This document shows positions 27,862 to 34,304 of a stretch of 64,000 nucleotides of DNA, piece by piece. The position numbers and the translations under genes were made by a program. Position 1 is the stretch's first letter; every line of letters begins with the position of its first letter. The notes below the pieces were generated by a model. The model had not been told where the DNA came from. It was given only the letters and a program-made list of their open reading frames with translations, and did no database searches. This stretch comes from Acidobacteriota bacterium (GTDB lineage: Bacteria > Acidobacteriota > Vicinamibacteria > Fen-336): positions 21,872-85,871 of the forward strand of contig JAJDNV010000159.1 of the NCBI GenBank assembly GCA_022340545.1. Reading direction: 5' to 3'.

Positions 27862-28881
27862 ATGTCGTCGACGCCACAGTGGTACATGGCCGTGGGTGGC
27901 CAGCAGGTCGGGCCCGTGTCCGAGGAAGACATCACCAACAACATCAAGAACGGCAGCGTCGACGCCGAGACCCTGGTCTTCATCGCGGGGATGGACGGCT
28001 GGACGCCGCTCAAGGCCGTGCCCAAGTTCGCGTCCCTGCTCGGCCCGATCGCTCCGCCGCCGATGCCTGCCTCGGCCCGGCGCTCGGACATCATCGACTA
28101 CAAGATCAAGGGCGAGGATGTTCAGTTCGTCGAGATCGAGCTCGACCCTGGCGAGGCCTGCGTGGCGGAGGCCGGGGCCATGATGTACATGACCGCCGGC
28201 ATCCAGATGGACACGATCTTCGGCGACGGGAGCGGCCGGCAGAAGCCCGGGATCATGGGTGCGCTGCTCGGCGCGGGCAAGCGCGTCCTGACCGGGGAGA
28301 GCCTCTTCATGACCGTCTTCTCTTCGCACGGTCGCGCGAAGGAGAGGGTGGCCTTCGCCGCGCCCTACCCGGGCCGGATCCTCGCCATGGAGCTTCCCGA
28401 GCTGGGGGGCGAGCTCATCTGCCAGAAGGACTCCTTCCTCTGCGCGGCCAAGGGCGTGGCCATCAGCATCGCCTTCCAGAAAAAGATCGGCGTGGGCCTC
28501 TTCGGCGGAGAGGGCTTCATCATGCAGCGTCTCCTGGGCGATGGGCTCTGCTTCGTCCACGCCGGGGGCATGCTCCACGAGCTGCAGCTCGGGGCGGGCG
28601 AGACGCTCCGGGTGGACACCGGCTGCCTCGTCGCGCTCCAGCCCAGTGTCGGCTATGACGTCCAGTTCGTGGGCGGCATCAAGACGGCCTTCTTCGGCGG
28701 GGAGGGGCTGTTCTTCGCCACCCTCACCGGGCCCGGCCGGGTGTGGCTGCAGTCGCTGCCGCTGAGCCGCATGGCGGACCGGATCTACAAGGCCGCGCCC
28801 CAGACCGGAGGCAGCCGCAAGGGCGAGGGCTCCATCCTCGACGTCGTCGGGGGCCTGGGCAACATGATCGACGGCGACTAA
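27862..28881 (+). CDS. AIM24-family (TIGR00266-like) protein with N-terminal DUF4339/GYF-like domain
   Basis: N-terminus [18 protein letters not shown]. The remainder matches the AIM24 pattern (GESLFMTVF...[22 protein letters not shown]). Confidence 0.7.
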
Positions 28882-28964
28882 TCGTTCCGGGAACGCCAGC
28901 TGAGCCGACGTTCCCGGAACAGTCCGCTAGGGGAGTGCACGCTGGTTCTCTTCTGAGCTTCGAC

Positions 28965-29423
28965 ATGCGACCCGCGCCCACACTCGCCAGCCGATTGATG
29001 TCGGGAGTCCTCCTCGCGCTCGGGATCCTCGCAGGCGGCCCGGTGGCTCGCGCCGACGACGGGCCACCAGCCGGAACAGCTGGGTCTGGTGAGGACACGG
29101 CGGGACCGCCGGCGCCCGCCCCGAAGCGCCCCGTGCTGGACGAGGAGCAGCCCCCCGTCGGCCCCTTCGGGACTACGGGGCTCGACTTCAAGAGCGACGA
29201 CGGAGGCTATCGCCTGCACCTCTGGTTCCGCGCCCAGGTCCGCTACTCATACCCATTCAACAGTGACCCCCGAGGCCCCGACGACTTCGTCGCCGGCGCG
29301 GTCCACTCCCTCGACCTGCAGCGGATCCGGGTCAAGCTCAAGGGGAACGCCTACCGGCCAGGCCATCGCCATGCGGAAACCGCAGGGTCTCGCCTCGGCG
29401 CCGTTGCCGCCAAGGAGCCTTGA
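28965..29423 (+). pseudogene. truncated porin-like gene fragment (signal peptide plus ~130 aa), possible remnant
   Basis: MRPAPTLASRLMSGVLLALGILAGGPVARA signal. HLWFRAQVRYSY...RIRVKLKGNAYRP resembles the N-terminus of phosphate-selective porins. Stops after 152 aa. A +1-frame continuation reads LDDDATWP...ITLTVYLSIA, then a low-GC tract. Confidence 0.35.
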
Positions 29424-29638
29424 CGATGATGCGACCTGGCCGGCTATGACCATGGCGGCGGGTCTGGCGGCGGGAGCTGGTGGGCTCGGTCGTCAGGCGC
29501 CCATCACCCTAACTGTATATTTATCAATTGCTAAGGTTGTTTCTCGCGAGACCGCCCGGGCGTAACAAAGCCCTTGCATCGCCCGAAACGTACGCCTAAA
29601 CTCGACGAAACAGTTCAGACGTTCCGCTTCTCTACGGT

Positions 29639-30178
29639 TTGAGCCGTCGGTGGGTGACGGCGGATAGAGGGAGTGACTTCTTGCCGCGGGTGTTTGCCTA
29701 CGGGAGCCTCATGGGGGACGCGGTTCTGGCGCGGTACCACGCGCGGCCGGCTCGGCTGGCCGGATACCACCGCGCCTTCCTCCACGAGTCGCTGCGACGC
29801 TGGGGTCAACCCGGGTCCCCCTGCCCCATCCTCGGCCTCTCGCCCGGAGGCGAGTGCTGGGGTCTCGTCTTCGACGTGCCCGCGTCCGATCGAGTCCGCG
29901 TCATGCGGGCCCTCGAGAAGCGGGAAGCCGCGAGCGAGCGCCGCCGTGAGACACATACCGTTGAAACGCCGGATGGACCGCTCCCGGCCGTGGTCTGGGT
30001 ATCTCGGAGCGCCAACGGCAACGGCTCTGACGGTTCGAGCCTCGAGGCACGCCTCCGGACGGCCCACGGCGTCGTGGGCACCGGTCCGGAGTACGTTCGG
30101 GGACTCGTGCACGCGATGGAGCTGCACGGCATCCGGGATTCACTGATCGACACCCTGTGGGAGCGGCTGCAAGGCTGA
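29639..30178 (+). CDS. gamma-glutamylcyclotransferase-like (ChaC/AIG2 fold) protein
   Basis: VFAYGSLM motif. The start may instead be the TTG at 29681, after AGAGGGA. Confidence 0.65.
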   Translation: MSRRWVTADRGSDFLPRVFAYGSLMGDAVLARYHARPARLAGYHRAFLHESLRRWGQPGSPCPILGLSPGGECWGLVFDVPASDRVRVMRALEKREAASERRRETHTVETPDGPLPAVVWVSRSANGNGSDGSSLEARLRTAHGVVGTGPEYVRGLVHAMELHGIRDSLIDTLWERLQG

Positions 30179-30185
30179 TTCACCC

Positions 30186-31295
30186 ATGCTCCTCTACATC
30201 ACCGCAGAAGACATCTTCGGCAGCGACAGACCCGAACGCGCCGGCCCCCGCCCCCTGCACCGCATCCCGGAGACGGTGGCCGGCCTCTTCGACCTGGGCC
30301 TGCGTCATCACATCCGCCCGGCGGTGATGGCCTGGCCGGGGGGCGAGGGGTTCGAGCCCGTTCCCGATTGGAAGCTGGACCGCCTGGCCATTCGAGTCGC
30401 GCTCCAGGGCCGGGAGCGGATGGGCGTGGAGCCGGGGGTCCGCGTGGCTCTCTTCGGCCGGCTGGGCTGGCTCTGGCCGGTCGTGGACTTCGCGGCGATG
30501 GGGTTCGGGGCGGTGCCGGTCGGTCTGGAGCACGACCTCTCGGACGACACCCTCGTCGAGGTCGTTGAGCGGGCCGGCCCGCGGGTGCTCTTTGCCACGG
30601 ATCCCGGGAGCGTGGCGCGCGCACTGCGCCTGCGCCAGGAGGGACACCTGGGAAGCGCCACCCTCGTTGGCGAAGGACTGCCCGAGGAGGAGGGCCTGCT
30701 GCCCCTTTCGCGGCTCCTGGAGCTGGGGTCGATCCTCGACACCGCCGAGCGAGCCCAGGCCTTCCGTGCGTTCTCGCGTCAGATCGCACCCGAGAGCGAG
30801 GCGATGTGGCATGCCGGATCGGAGGGCCTGTCCCGCCTGACCCACCGGGAAGCGATGGGCCGGCTCGAAGGGCGGCTGAGAGCCCACCCGGCACAGAAGG
30901 GCGACGTCGCCTTTGTCGATGGACCCCGGGTGACTCTTGGGGTGCGCCTCACCCTGGCCGCCTTCGTTGGGGACGGTCTCACCACGACCGCCCTGGGCCG
31001 GGAGGGGAGAGCAGACGAGGACGTCGCCGTGCTCCGGCCCCACAAGATGGTCCTGTGCGGAGACTGGCTCGAGGCGACCTGCGAGGGCCAGGCCCCCCGG
31101 TGGCCGGCAGGGCTCGACCGCCCACGGGTCCGACGCCGGCTGATGAAGCGCCTCGGCGGCCGTCTGCGCCGGGTCGAGACCGCGTCGGGCATCAGCGAGG
31201 GCACGGTGCGCGCCCTGGACACGGCGGGAGTGACGCACGAGGTGACGGAGACGGGGGCCAGCGAAGCCGTGCACGGAACGGAGACCGTGCACTGA
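30186..31295 (+). CDS. ANL-superfamily (AMP-binding) N-terminal-domain-like protein with a degenerate P-loop and no C-terminal subdomain
   Basis: GVRVALFGRLGWLWPVVDFAAMGFGAVPV...VLFATD resembles the ANL N-terminus. WHAGSEGLSRLTHREAM lies where TSGTTGxPKGVxLTHRN is expected. 7 bp after the GGCT-like gene. Confidence 0.5.
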   Translation: MLLYITAEDIFGSDRPERAGPRPLHRIPETVAGLFDLGLRHHIRPAVMAWPGGEGFEPVPDWKLDRLAIRVALQGRERMGVEPGVRVALFGRLGWLWPVVDFAAMGFGAVPVGLEHDLSDDTLVEVVERAGPRVLFATDPGSVARALRLRQEGHLGSATLVGEGLPEEEGLLPLSRLLELGSILDTAERAQAFRAFSRQIAPESEAMWHAGSEGLSRLTHREAMGRLEGRLRAHPAQKGDVAFVDGPRVTLGVRLTLAAFVGDGLTTTALGREGRADEDVAVLRPHKMVLCGDWLEATCEGQAPRWPAGLDRPRVRRRLMKRLGGRLRRVETASGISEGTVRALDTAGVTHEVTETGASEAVHGTETVH

Positions 31296-31347
31296 TCGTT
31301 CCCGCGGCCGGCCACGCGCCGCTGCGGGCGAGAGGAGGCAGAAGACG

Positions 31348-33306
31348 ATGGAGACGACGCTTCAGCAGATCGGCGATCTCGCCTGGCGGGCCTTCCAGTC
31401 GGTGAACACCCGCGTCCCCGAGGGACGCTCGGTCGAGCCGGACTGGGCGCCGGGACCCCTGCCGAAATCGCACGAGAGGACGCGTCCGCCCCTCGGCTAT
31501 CCTCGCGAGACGGACTCGCTGTGCCCCCAGTGCGTCATCGAGACGCGGAGGAAGCTCCTGAACGGGGAGCGCGATCTCAAGGACCTCGTCGACGGCCACA
31601 TCGGCGAGGTCAAGGCCACGTTCTACGAGAAGGGCAAGGAGCTCTGGGTCACCAAGACCTGCCCCGAGCACGGGACCTTCGACGACATCCGCTCCATCGA
31701 CGTCGAGTTCGACAAGGTCGTGGAGAGCCGCTTCCCCGGGCGCGACTACCGCACCTTCGGGGACGAGAACGTGCACCGCCACGGCACCTCGACCGTGCGG
31801 TACGGCCGCGGCGCGGTCCTGACCGTCGACCTCACCAACCGCTGCAACATGATGTGCAACCCCTGCTTCATGGACGCCAACCAGGTGGGGTACGTGCACG
31901 AGCTGACGCTCGAGGAGATCAAGAAGATCCTCGACGACTCGATCTCCTTCAAGCCGCGGCGGCAGATGGTGGTGCAGTACTCCGGCGGAGAGCCGACGAT
32001 GTCGCCCCACTTCCTCGAGGCCTGCGCCTACGCGAAGAAGGTGGGCTACAAGCTCATCCAGGCCGCGACCAACGGCATCCGCTTCGCCCTCGAGCCCGAG
32101 TTCGCCTTCCAGGCGAAGGAGGCGGGGCTCGACATGGTGTACTTCCAGTTCGACGGGACCACCAACGAGGCCAACTCCCACCGTCACATCACCAACCTCT
32201 TCGACGTCAAGAAGATCGCCATCGACAACATCGCCGCCGCCGGGATCCGCATCACCCCGGTGGTGACCGTCGTCAACGGCGTGAACAACCACATGGTCGG
32301 TCCGATCTTCGACTTCTGCCTCGAGAACCACGACAAGATGGGCGGGCCCGCGTTCCAGCCGGTGTCCTTCACCGGACGTGACGAGGAGATCAGCGACGAG
32401 GAGCGATTGAAGCAGCGGTACACCACCTCGCACCTCGCCCACGACCTGGCGAAGTACTACGACGGCAAGATCGACCCCTACCGGGACTGGTACCCGCTGG
32501 GTTCCTCGACCGCCTTCGCCTCCCTCGCCGACCACCTGAGGGGACCGCAGTCGGACTTCGGACAGCTCAACTGCGGCTGCCACCCGAACTGCGGGGCGGC
32601 GACGATGATGGTGGCCAACGCCGGCACCGGCGAGTGGGCGACGCTGATGTCGTTCTTCAACCTCGACCAGTTCTTCAGGGACCTCGACGTGGTCGTCGAC
32701 TCCGCTCGCGGCAAGACCGCCACCATCGCCCAGATCGGCCTCTCCTTCCTCCGCAACTTCGACCAGAAGAAGGCCCCGAAGGGGATGACCCCGCTCCGGA
32801 TGCTGGAGCTGTTCAACGGGAAGATGGGCGGGACGGTGACCGGCGACGGCGAGGAGAAGAAGGGCGAGTGGCGCCTGACCACGATCCTGAGCATGTGGTT
32901 CCAGGACCTGTGGAACTACGACTTCCGCCGCACGGAGATGTGCGTGATCCCGTACGGCACCCAGGAGGGCGAGATCTCCTTCTGCGCCTACAACACCGGC
33001 GTGGGGTGGCGGAACATCATCGAGGAGATGCGCCAGGTGGCCACGACGAAGGACTGGTTCGCCGAGAAGGGCCGGCACCAGATCTACGCCGGCGACCGGC
33101 CCGTGGAGATGCCCCACGCCCTCAAGCGCAAGCTGCCGGTCGTTTCTGTCGAGGGAGGAAACGGGAACGGAGACGGCCACGAGCAGGCCCGGCCGGTGGG
33201 CGGCAACGGGAACGGCCAGGGTCACGCGAGGGCGGCCGACGGCGCCCCCCAGCCCGCCGGGCCGCACGCCCAGGGCGGCTGCGGCACCGGCTGCGGGGGC
33301 CACTAG
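31348..33306 (+). CDS. radical SAM enzyme with N-terminal rubredoxin-like Cys pairs and additional Cys clusters; possible MJ0619/Tes (GDGT-MAS)-family member; Gly/Asn-rich C-terminal tail
   Basis: CNMMCNPCF (CX3CX2C) followed by GGEPT. N-terminal CPQC...(45 aa)...CPEHG. Extra clusters CGCHPNCG and C..C. Tail GNGNGDGH...GNGNGQGH...GGCGTGCGGH. RBS GAGAGGAGG. Confidence 0.8.
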   Translation: METTLQQIGDLAWRAFQSVNTRVPEGRSVEPDWAPGPLPKSHERTRPPLGYPRETDSLCPQCVIETRRKLLNGERDLKDLVDGHIGEVKATFYEKGKELWVTKTCPEHGTFDDIRSIDVEFDKVVESRFPGRDYRTFGDENVHRHGTSTVRYGRGAVLTVDLTNRCNMMCNPCFMDANQVGYVHELTLEEIKKILDDSISFKPRRQMVVQYSGGEPTMSPHFLEACAYAKKVGYKLIQAATNGIRFALEPEFAFQAKEAGLDMVYFQFDGTTNEANSHRHITNLFDVKKIAIDNIAAAGIRITPVVTVVNGVNNHMVGPIFDFCLENHDKMGGPAFQPVSFTGRDEEISDEERLKQRYTTSHLAHDLAKYYDGKIDPYRDWYPLGSSTAFASLADHLRGPQSDFGQLNCGCHPNCGAATMMVANAGTGEWATLMSFFNLDQFFRDLDVVVDSARGKTATIAQIGLSFLRNFDQKKAPKGMTPLRMLELFNGKMGGTVTGDGEEKKGEWRLTTILSMWFQDLWNYDFRRTEMCVIPYGTQEGEISFCAYNTGVGWRNIIEEMRQVATTKDWFAEKGRHQIYAGDRPVEMPHALKRKLPVVSVEGGNGNGDGHEQARPVGGNGNGQGHARAADGAPQPAGPHAQGGCGTGCGGH

Positions 33307-33362
33307 ACGAAGGACGCCGCGGCTCTTACGGAGTCGCTGACGCCGGCTCAGGACCTCTGAGG

Positions 33363-34304
33363 TCAGATTCTCTCGGCGCGGGCCTTGAGATTCAGCAGCT
33401 GCTTGCGCTGCATGATGAGGTGGGCGGGGCCGAAGAACGCCTTCATCAGGAGGTCCAGCCAGATCGGCCGGACCAGGCCGCGGGTGCGCACGAGGAGCCG
33501 GGTCCGGGCCGGGCCGAGCTCTTCGAGGACGAACACCCAGGTGGCCCGCAGGAAGCGCGACGGCCTCGCCTCGGACCACTCGAGCTGGGCCAGCTTCGTG
33601 TAGTTGAAGTAGGTCCCGAGGACAAAGGTTTCCGGGGCCTCGAGCTCGAGTACCTCGAACCCTTCCGGGTGGCCGGGTCGCGCGGGCAGAACGTCGCCCA
33701 CCTTCGTCGCCTGGAGCTCGGGAACGAGTCGCTCAGCGCTGGGCCGCCCTCCGTTGTCCAGCCGGTCCCAGCTGTACCAGCCCGCCCGCTCGCAGCCCAT
33801 CTGGACGAGCCACGGCCAGACGGCTTCGCGTGAGGCCTCGATCGTGATGCCGTGCGTGGCCGGGTTCCGGGCCTCGGGGATCTGTCCGTCACCCGGCAGG
33901 TCCCGCTTGCTTTCCTGCCGCGTGGCGTGCCAACGCCACGCCGGACCCGCCCCCATCACCCAGACCGCGGCGCCCCAGGCCGAGAGGAAGATCAGGGTGA
34001 ACGGGATCCACGTGCCGATCGGGCTCTGGAACATGGCCCAGCTGCGCTCGATGAACGGCGCGACGAGCGCGGCGTCCATCACGACCACGACGCCGATGAA
34101 GACGGCAGCCACCCGCAGCGGCGTCGTCACCGCGAGGTACCGAGCATAGACGTACGCGAGGACCCCCGCGATGACCGGGGCCGCGGCCGCGTGCACGATG
34201 AGCGCGGTCTCCATGGGCACCAGGCTCCGGGCCACGGCGATGGTCGCACCGCACAGGCCCCAGCCAAGGAGTGCGAATCCGAAGAGAGCCAGCGTCCGGG
34301 CCAC
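33363..34304 (-). CDS. membrane-anchored SRPBCC (START/polyketide-cyclase-like) domain protein
   Basis: 4 N-terminal TM helices, then an SRPBCC-like C-terminal region. Confidence 0.65.
   Translation of the reverse strand: MARTLALFGFALLGWGLCGATIAVARSLVPMETALIVHAAAAPVIAGVLAYVYARYLAVTTPLRVAAVFIGVVVVMDAALVAPFIERSWAMFQSPIGTWIPFTLIFLSAWGAAVWVMGAGPAWRWHATRQESKRDLPGDGQIPEARNPATHGITIEASREAVWPWLVQMGCERAGWYSWDRLDNGGRPSAERLVPELQATKVGDVLPARPGHPEGFEVLELEAPETFVLGTYFNYTKLAQLEWSEARPSRFLRATWVFVLEELGPARTRLLVRTRGLVRPIWLDLLMKAFFGPAHLIMQRKQLLNLKARAERI

Follow-up and report, generated by a model that had tools for sequence, protein, structure and literature searches.

What does an enzyme of the radical S-adenosylmethionine (SAM) type, related to an archaeal membrane lipid synthase, do beside a gamma-glutamylcyclotransferase-fold protein and a stripped adenylation domain? 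The question is raised by a 64,000-nucleotide stretch from an Acidobacteriota bacterium (Vicinamibacteria, Fen-336; GenBank assembly GCA_022340545.1, contig JAJDNV010000159.1, positions 21,872 to 85,871), hereafter the window, in which three genes follow one another on the plus strand. Gene A (preferred span 29681..30178) encodes a ChaC-type gamma-glutamylcyclotransferase-fold protein of 165 amino acids (aa), gene B (30186..31295) a stand-alone ANL-superfamily large N-domain of 369 aa, and gene C (31348..33306) a 652-aa radical SAM enzyme, a full-length bacterial homolog of the archaeal tetraether lipid synthase Tes, also called GDGT-MAS (GDGT: glycerol dialkyl glycerol tetraether). The three genes are co-directional, with a gap of 7 nt between A and B and of 52 nt between B and C, as an initial annotation made from the sequence had described, and its family calls (GGCT-like, degenerate ANL and radical SAM) agree with Pfam, which returns ChaC, a partial AMP-binding domain and Radical_SAM. 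That annotation had also remarked that the combination is no textbook pathway, and the A-B-C combination is absent from the literature searched. The comparative data described below indicate that A-B-C is a functional unit that is conserved and probably co-transcribed, and is confined to one clade of bacterial Tes homologs.

Conservation of the A-B-C Linkage

The linkage was examined from both of its ends. On the C side, 80 species-representative genome loci carrying C homologs of 50-81% identity were searched for B by tblastn and by a narrow and a widened hidden Markov model (HMM) run on six-frame translations. On the B side, 80 metagenome loci with B homologs of 34-100% identity were collected (one of these, L081, is 100% identical to the window), and the B-side counts take in only loci with enough flanking sequence. 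C lies directly 3' of B in 54 of 55 such loci, namely 29/29 where B is at least 45% identical and 25/26 where it is 30-45% identical. A adjoins B upstream in all 40 loci with B at 45% identity or above, across a gap of 7-22 nt (one pair overlaps by 13 nt), and it adjoins B in 13/22 loci with B at 30-45%, where the two are often transcribed divergently from a common intergenic stretch of ~400 bp. The distance between A and B is shorter and varies less than that between B and C, and the same gene order is present on contigs of 2.6 Mb and 4.7 Mb with independent gene calls. The sole B homolog without a radical SAM gene next to it (41% identity; L132, 1-2431) has an unrelated open reading frame (ORF) in its place. 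On the C side, B was found in only 8 loci (L001-L006, L009, and L010), always directly upstream of C, and A precedes B in L001-L003. These 8 loci carry the labels Acidobacteriota, Gemmatimonadales/Gemmatimonadaceae, and Myxococcales.

In a neighbor-joining tree, all of the B-linked C proteins form one clade, which is composed of Vicinamibacteria-like Acidobacteriota, Gemmatimonadota, and relatives, and is sister to a Latescibacterota group without B; neither partner is present in a basal relative (L161). For A and C, the closest named relatives come from Vicinamibacteria metagenome-assembled genomes (MAGs; subdivision 6). Identity to the window falls in step for the three proteins (100 to 60% for C, 100 to 42% for A, and 100 to 30% for B), and the flanking genes change completely between loci while the triplet persists. 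Given this monophyly, the co-divergence, the unrelated flanks, and the neighborhood counts, the triplet is a vertically inherited module of single origin that is not general to bacterial Tes homologs.

Outside this clade, the picture is different. Neither A nor B was found within 7 kb of ~66 more distant C homologs with enough upstream sequence, and the lineages without B include Pyrinomonadaceae, Latescibacterota, and Bryobacterales. A divergent B hidden near the distant homologs was considered and rejected, as the narrow and the widened HMM find the same 8 loci only. The initial annotation had suggested co-transcription and had named a neighborhood analysis as its check. Co-transcription is now probable, with the adjacency recurring in dozens of independent contigs and conserved within the clade, and the neighborhood analysis is positive for that clade (54/55 for C and 40/40 for A) and negative for distant homologs of 50-60% identity, whose neighbors vary. 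The linkage is therefore clade-specific and not family-wide.

One locus joins two of the genes outright. In L009 (5993-8794), B and C form a single in-frame ORF of 934 aa, in which B is shortened at its C-terminus and the N-terminus of C is conserved, and no stop codon, intergenic remnant, or start methionine of C is left. As all three of these are gone, a long-read indel artefact is an unlikely source, and from its sequence L009 is judged likely to be a real fusion and, as a single case, evidence that B and C associate physically. In two further loci, B is divided between two frames or gene calls (L010, 6145-6863; L163, 8500-9595), which may reflect pseudogenization or an indel error of long-read assembly.

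Protein C: A Radical SAM Enzyme of a Tes-Like Subfamily

Pfam recognizes Radical_SAM and Zn_ribbon_HMPTM (1.3e-10) domains in C, and its best NCBIfam match is the tetraether lipid synthase Tes (rSAM_GDGT_ether, NF045702; IPR034474) at 292.4 bits. Its sole relative in the Protein Data Bank is the archaeal GDGT-MAS (7TOL/7TOM; E-value 1.3e-54, residues 87-561). C is a member of a bacterial subfamily that resembles Tes and is not a Tes equivalog.

GDGT-MAS has four metal sites (Lloyd et al., PMC9433317), and the sites defined in that work were checked in 108 bacterial homologs of C. The rubredoxin-type iron motif of GDGT-MAS, CX2C...CX2H (PMC9433317), has its counterpart in a rubredoxin-type zinc-ribbon domain of C (31501..31689, plus strand; Pfam Zn_ribbon_HMPTM), in which C59-X2-C62 and C105-X2-H108 are invariant in all 108 sequences. 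Equally invariant are the three cysteines of the radical SAM cluster motif, CX3CX2C (C166, C170, and C173; 31843..31866, plus strand). In the region of the C-terminal auxiliary cluster, which in GDGT-MAS neighbors two lipid pockets, C415, C532, and C546 have archaeal cysteines as their aligned counterparts and are likewise invariant, and they are joined by an additional invariant C409-x-C411-H412, which is specific to the bacterial family and adjoins a putative ligand of the C-terminal cluster (32572..32592, plus strand, from the alignment to the archaeal enzyme and the 108 homologs). The N-terminal auxiliary cluster presents another picture. In GDGT-MAS, the [Fe4S4]N ligands are a cysteine triad (C73, C77, and C80) and a histidine (PMC9433317). 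The archaeal segment GCPYDCGLCPNH aligns to HRH..GTSTVRY of C, and an invariant HxHGxS replaces the triad in the 108 bacterial homologs (C residues 138-150). Within residues 115-160 (numbering of C), a cysteine is found in 0/35 sequences of the B-linked clade and in 2/73 of the others. The cofactor complement of the bacterial family is thus probably unlike that of GDGT-MAS, judging from these alignments.

The C-terminal tail of C (residues ~600-652; 33145..33303, plus strand) is a Gly/Asn-rich, low-complexity linker that ends in GGCGTGCGGH, the motif after the linker being Cys-Gly-x-Gly-Cys-Gly-(Cys/Gly)-His. Nearly all C homologs of the B-linked clade (L001-L006 and L101-L159) have tails of the CG(x)GCGC[HS] or ACGCH type. 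Latescibacterota homologs end in GCCGSE followed by ~20 further residues, and those of Pyrinomonadaceae have an acidic, cysteine-free tail without the Cys-Gly motif. The tail has no counterpart in the archaeal enzyme, and its Cys-Gly motif may bind a metal or a cluster.

Protein B: An ANL Fold Without Its Catalytic Parts

By sequence, the match of B to the ANL superfamily is partial. Pfam matches AMP-binding (PF00501) at residues 78-166 only (40.6 bits against a cutoff of 29.9), a match that spans profile positions 40-132 of 384, and NCBIfam returns weak, generic FadD-type matches only. The sequence likeness to ANL enzymes sits around the A2 motif region. The predicted structure extends this likeness over the whole protein. 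An AlphaFold model built from 48 homologs (predicted local distance difference test score, pLDDT, 86; predicted template modeling score, pTM, 0.85) matches, in Foldseek, the N-domains of the carboxylic acid reductase (CAR) A-domain, FadD5, FadD13, and luciferase with template modeling (TM) scores of 0.6-0.7 and 11-20% identity, at E-values of 1e-13 to 1e-15 over 340-400 columns, which is the whole length of B.

The phosphate-binding loop of ANL enzymes (A3 motif) has the form [ST]SG[ST]TGxPKG. At the corresponding place in B, between strands 205-211 and 214-219 (region 30798-30845), there is just an AGSEG segment, which is unconserved across the B family. The mobile C-terminal subdomain with the catalytic lysine (A10) is absent, as B ends at residue 369, near the position of the A5 region, and the next gene is that of the radical SAM enzyme. 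Since the phosphate loop and the whole of the C-terminal catalytic subdomain are lost, adenylation and thioesterification as known in the ANL superfamily are excluded for B on the sequence and the model.

The short form is a property of the family, whose members are 330-400 aa in length. A search of 1.84 billion representative sequences gave 109 clusters at 50% identity with E-values of at most 1e-30 and 200 with at most 1e-10, and the best 150 matches were all no longer than 463 aa. The B family has an invariant motif of its own, LDTxERAxxxR (30735-30767, plus strand, from the homolog alignment), and further invariant features are PDW (D61/W62), R66, T186, G264, and T266 (DGxT), which persist down to 26-38% identity. 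The evolutionary rate of B exceeds that of C two- to threefold.

Protein A: A ChaC-Type Protein

A belongs to ChaC in Pfam (PF04752; 5.6e-17, 62.8 bits against a cutoff of 21), with a lesser match to GGACT (5e-7); no NCBIfam model matches it. In the 179-aa ORF as called (29639-30178, plus strand, TTG start), the VFAYGSLM segment occupies residues 18-25. The YGSL motif (29699-29710, plus strand) is conserved in 52 homologs, as is a putative catalytic glutamate (E96 in ORF numbering; 29924-29926, plus strand), which aligns to Glu83 of ChaC2: Y21, L24, and E96 are conserved in at least 95% of the homologs and G22/S23 in at least 80%. Glu83 is the glutamate that is conserved across gamma-glutamylcyclotransferase enzymes and is catalytic (PMC7022552). 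An AlphaFold2 model of A (pLDDT 80) is closest in Foldseek to the glutathione-specific enzymes yeast Gcg1 (TM 0.84) and ChaC2 (TM 0.81), ahead of GGCT (~0.62) and GGACT (~0.45). The A family also has invariant features of its own, namely P-C-P, E-C-W-G, and a C-terminal AHGxxGxGxEYVR. On the sequence and the model, A probably works as a gamma-glutamylcyclotransferase of the ChaC type, for which glutathione is not assured as substrate.

Gene Starts and Expression Signals

The start of A is probably not the called TTG at 29639 but the TTG at 29681, because a GGAG lies 8 nt 5' of the latter and because the homologs are nearly all 165-166 aa long with a consensus start of MxxVFAYGSLMG; on other contigs, the gene was independently called at 166 and 163 aa. 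The ATG of B follows 7 nt past the stop of A and has no Shine-Dalgarno sequence of its own, which suggests that the translation of B is coupled to that of A. As read from the sequence, C has a strong ribosome-binding site of its own, AGGAGG (31331..31336, plus strand), ~9-11 nt before its ATG. Downstream, C converges on a minus-strand gene, and therefore the unit ends with C.

Directly past the stop of the upstream AIM24/GYF gene lies an inverted repeat, cgttccgggaacg...cgttcccggaac (28882..28922, plus strand), which is probably a terminator hairpin that divides off the upstream transcription unit. It has no T-run, and hence was not called by the terminator scan, and in the Rfam search it appears only as sub-threshold hairpin-like matches. 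Its position directly after the AIM24/GYF gene suggests that the A-B-C unit begins within the 757-bp gap before A, where the intergenic region 29424..29680 (plus strand), a local GC minimum, is the presumed promoter and 5' untranslated region of the operon. No sigma-70 promoters or intrinsic terminators were found in 28700-33700, by a scan that is uninformative for this phylum, and no riboswitch or further RNA element was found in front of A, all Rfam matches being far under the gathering scores.

Codon usage was assessed by codon-position GC content and a self-trained codon score. C has the strongest bias (GC content at third codon positions, GC3, 0.96; 0.39 per codon), followed by B (GC3 0.86; 0.19 per codon) and A (GC3 0.81; 0.02 per codon); the signal of A and B is weaker, and their frame is correct. 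This gradient within the operon may reflect a higher expression of C or a weaker selection on its partners.

Surroundings of the Operon

The initial annotation had read a low-GC tract and a gene remnant in front of A as signs of a locally remodeled or acquired segment. The tract is real (GC 0.51-0.59 at 29450-29650 against ~0.70 overall), but it is modest, and is the ordinary composition of an intergenic or promoter region. It was therefore discarded as a mark of acquisition. Recent horizontal acquisition or local remodeling was rejected on the strong host-type codon bias that C shares with its neighbors (GC3 0.96) and on the co-divergence of A, B, and C. As for the remnant, the orphan ORF at 28965..29423 (plus strand) encodes 152 aa, whose N-terminus resembles a signal peptide and which include a porin-like beta-strand start (YRLHLWFRAQVRYSY). 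Its codon score is negative, and its GC3 is below its GC content at first codon positions. A Pfam search of it gave no match even at E-values up to 1, and tblastn found no relative in any of the 163 related loci, so that neither descent from a known gene nor the idea of a truncated known porin finds support. The ORF is probably decayed or non-functional, and lies outside the module.

The genes flanking the operon between 22151 and 40903 are annotated with functions unrelated to lipid synthesis. They encode DUF937, histidine phosphatase, Ser/Thr kinase, GT4 glycosyltransferase, DUF4440, and DUF533/TerB proteins; an AIM24 protein with a GYF domain, a Pfam-less membrane protein, a TolB-like PD40 protein, and a ZIP transporter; and MsrB, a second Ser/Thr kinase fused to a PD40 propeller, and MlaD.

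Neighbors of C Homologs in Other Loci

Elsewhere in the family, C has other neighbors. In Pyrinomonadaceae, the block reads lptD(-) lpxB(+) lpxD(-) lpxA(-) rSAM(+), with the lipid A genes upstream of the radical SAM gene (rSAM). A Pfam-less gene of ~190-280 aa then follows the radical SAM gene in 14 Pyrinomonadaceae loci (L014-L016, L019, L021, L025, L026, L030-L033, L042, L044, and L049); the idea that this ~190-aa gene is a remote analog of A or B was ruled out by profile comparison. In Latescibacterota, amidohydrolase genes stand upstream of the homologs and tig-clpP-clpX downstream. Tes homologs without B are adjoined by small extra radical SAM genes (~305 or 422 aa) in L078 (5477-6742) and, downstream of the radical SAM gene, in L014, L019, L033, and L036.

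In eight loci of a Gemmatimonadota-like branch, a gene for a B12-binding radical SAM protein of ~500 aa adjoins C in either orientation (L003, 9055-10539; L005, L137, L138, L143, L151, L153, and L156). Its product may be a methylase of lipids or a ring synthase, and the gene has no copy in the window. A gene of this kind also stands beside C in one Latescibacterota locus (L008, 3221-4708).

Proposed Function and Alternatives

From the gene order, conservation, monophyly, folds, and the pattern of motif loss and retention, we infer a lipid substrate for C, a complex of B with C, and a role for A. In the reading that we favor, with moderate confidence, C is a Tes-like coupler of lipid tails, B is a non-adenylating ANL partner bound to C, and A is a ChaC-type cleaver of gamma-glutamyl compounds. 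C would couple two lipid alkyl tails at their terminal carbons by way of two SAM-derived radicals and the C-terminal auxiliary Fe-S cluster, and its product would be a membrane-spanning lipid of the iso-diabolic-acid or branched GDGT (brGDGT) type. B most likely would bind C physically, probably as a subunit that binds or docks, and possibly presents, acyl chains or lipids by means of an inherited fatty-acyl-binding fold. For A, the proposed part is the cleavage of a gamma-glutamyl compound that is needed or removed in the reaction, either glutathione or a thiol or amide related to it. The initial annotation had left the choice between a lipid-tailoring and a small-molecule module. A lipid-tailoring role is plausible, as the radical SAM protein is a homolog of the tetraether lipid synthase, a relationship that the annotation had not recognized. 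The alignment with GDGT-MAS spans both the core and the C-terminal cluster domain of C, and the lipid role has further support in the invariant cysteines of the rubredoxin, radical SAM, and C-terminal cluster motifs, the lipid A context of the Pyrinomonadaceae homologs, the B12-binding radical SAM genes beside C in eight loci of the clade, and a taxonomic spread of the family that agrees with the reported producers of iso-diabolic acid.

Several observations weigh against this proposal. We know of no link between gamma-glutamyl chemistry and lipid coupling. Most bacterial Tes homologs occur without A and B, and therefore the partners are not needed for the basic chemistry of the family; even within the B family, no A stands beside B in 9/22 of the divergent loci. 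The physical tie of B to C is illustrated by one fusion only, with none among the top 150 B-family hits in the 1.84 billion representatives. In A, the residues that correspond to ChaC2 His39 and Tyr87 fall on R54 and E100 (by HMMER pairwise alignment, the register of which is uncertain at 20% identity), both of which are invariant within the A family; with Arg and Glu apparently in place of the two residues, the substrate of A may be other than glutathione. C scores under the NCBIfam equivalog cutoff for Tes, which is 450 bits, and the cysteine triad of the N-terminal auxiliary [Fe4S4] cluster is absent from C and from all 108 bacterial homologs. Furthermore, no bacterial Tes homolog has been shown to make any lipid (PMC8941075, PMC13459092, PMC11868695), and MA_1114, an archaeal paralog of Tes, makes no GDGT (PMC8941075). 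Lastly, B keeps an invariant polar set (H42, R44, D185, E188, R189, R194, R254, and D263), on account of which it may hold a new ligand site, and, as far as its sequence goes, B could have a new catalytic or ligand-binding role rather than a passive one.

Some of these observations lend themselves to a different substrate. Instead of a membrane lipid, the operon might modify a soluble small molecule or peptide, such as a gamma-glutamyl thiol or amide: C would have changed its substrate, B would bind a small carboxylic acid or a nucleoside ligand, and A would remove a gamma-glutamyl group, as in the protecting-group chemistry of the aminoglycoside type. ChaC and GGCT enzymes do work on soluble gamma-glutamyl compounds, ANL folds mostly handle small acids, and the sub-cutoff score of C is accompanied by a match to TrsS in NCBIfam. 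The missing [Fe4S4]N site, the failure of MA_1114 to make GDGT, and the presence of bacterial homologs in organisms that are not known for biphytanyl chains (Lloyd et al., PMC9433317) point the same way. We nevertheless consider a soluble substrate unlikely, since the C family adjoins lipid A genes in Pyrinomonadaceae, the fatty-acyl ligases FadD5 and FadD13 are among the closest structural relatives of B, and no carrier protein, precursor peptide, or further tailoring gene is conserved around the cluster. The polar residues of B, kept down to 26-38% identity, would instead be explained if B were itself an enzyme that has gained a new activity on its ANL scaffold, with, for example, an acyl intermediate or the head group of a lipid as its substrate before or after the coupling step. 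A and B would then be a pair that tailors the product of C in two steps. The A-B spacing, which is tighter and steadier than that of B and C, would fit such a pair. Against it stand the loss of every canonical ANL catalytic element, an evolutionary rate two to three times that of C, and the natural fusion, which joins B to C and not A to B, and we regard this reading as rather improbable, a little more so than a soluble substrate. That the adjacency means nothing, the genes being neighbors only through the shared descent of close genomes, might be argued from the flanking genes, which are otherwise unrelated to lipid metabolism, and from the different neighbors of most Tes homologs. This is very improbable, and is effectively refuted already by the conservation data: the triplet stays while all of its flanks change, it persists at C identities from 100% to 60% and in MAGs labeled as three phyla, A remains adjacent after inversion, and B, fused to C in one locus, is essentially never away from it (54/55).

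The proposal of a lipid-coupling C with a bound B and a gamma-glutamyl-cleaving A can be carried one step further, if only tentatively: C might be the core of a multi-component synthase, which requires an ANL subunit to present the lipid and a ChaC-like processor of a gamma-glutamyl thiol or head group. If so, A and B would be the first known accessory factors of any tetraether or diabolic-acid synthase, and their requirement would be a possible reason why no bacterial Tes homolog has been functionally confirmed so far; expression of the radical SAM gene alone may fail in the B-linked clade. The branched GDGTs are among the terrestrial proxies of past temperature and pH in widest use, and bacterial Tes homologs are candidates for the acidobacterial enzyme that joins two alkyl chains for them. 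The A-B-C operon does not settle brGDGT biosynthesis, but it offers a precise three-gene hypothesis, and a concrete candidate set, for the synthesis of brGDGT-type lipids in a large soil clade. It is also a rare case of an ANL adenylation domain that has been stripped of its catalytic parts and kept as the partner of a radical SAM enzyme.

Comparison With Known Systems

Tes (GDGT-MAS; MJ0619, MA_1486) and C belong to the same radical SAM family, with ~475 residues aligned, and differ in several respects. C has HxHGTS and no cysteines at the [Fe4S4]N site, it has the additional invariant CxCH, its rubredoxin spacer is 42 residues long where that of Tes is 20, and it carries an N-terminal extension of ~50 aa and a C-terminal one of ~90 aa with a Cys-Gly-rich end. 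Tes is described as acting alone, whereas C has two dedicated partner genes. The substrates of Tes are phytanyl chains and those predicted for C are bacterial acyl or alkyl chains; GDGT-MAS binds two phospholipids, bacterial ones included (PMC9433317), and Lloyd et al. noted its bacterial homologs (PMC9433317).

Bacterial homologs of Tes are candidates, biochemically untested, for the coupling of iso-C15 chains to iso-diabolic acid and brGDGTs (PMC8941075, PMC10087280, PMC11868695; reviewed in PMC13459092). Those proposed for brGDGT synthesis, such as that of Solibacter usitatus (Zeng 2022; Halamka 2022), share with C the family and the hypothesized role. These proposals concern the radical SAM gene alone, however, and the homologs of Bryobacterales/Solibacteraceae and Pyrinomonadaceae have no A or B within 7 kb, whereas the C of the window belongs to a separate clade with an accessory pair. 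Iso-diabolic acid is made by acidobacterial subdivisions 1, 3, 4, and 6 (PMC13159169), and the C family occurs in these same groups.

Mss of Thermotoga and Thermoanaerobacter (Sahonero-Canavesi 2022) is a confirmed bacterial synthase of membrane-spanning lipids. It is a radical SAM enzyme by which two fatty-acyl chains are joined tail-to-tail, and the product predicted for C is of the same type. By description, Mss is set apart from C, as it comes from anaerobes and acts alone in E. coli. Its relationship to Tes is described as only remote, and the Acidobacteria examined yielded no mss homolog (PMC13159169).

The two partners also depart from their better-known relatives. A shares with ChaC, ChaC2, and yeast Gcg1 the fold, the YGSL-type motif, and the catalytic glutamate, but the identity is ~20%, ChaC2 His39 and Tyr87 are apparently Arg and Glu, and the A family has its own invariants; unlike a housekeeping gene of glutathione turnover, A is tied to a radical SAM operon. 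The large N-terminal domain of ANL ligases (FadD5, FadD13, and CAR) is matched along all of B, which differs from them in having no P-loop, no C-terminal subdomain, and no catalytic lysine. No description of a ChaC-like and ANL-like partner pair was found for any Tes homolog in the literature searched. Radical SAM proteins of the Tes family and their bacterial homologs are thus already known, and what is new with respect to that literature is the dedicated partner pair.

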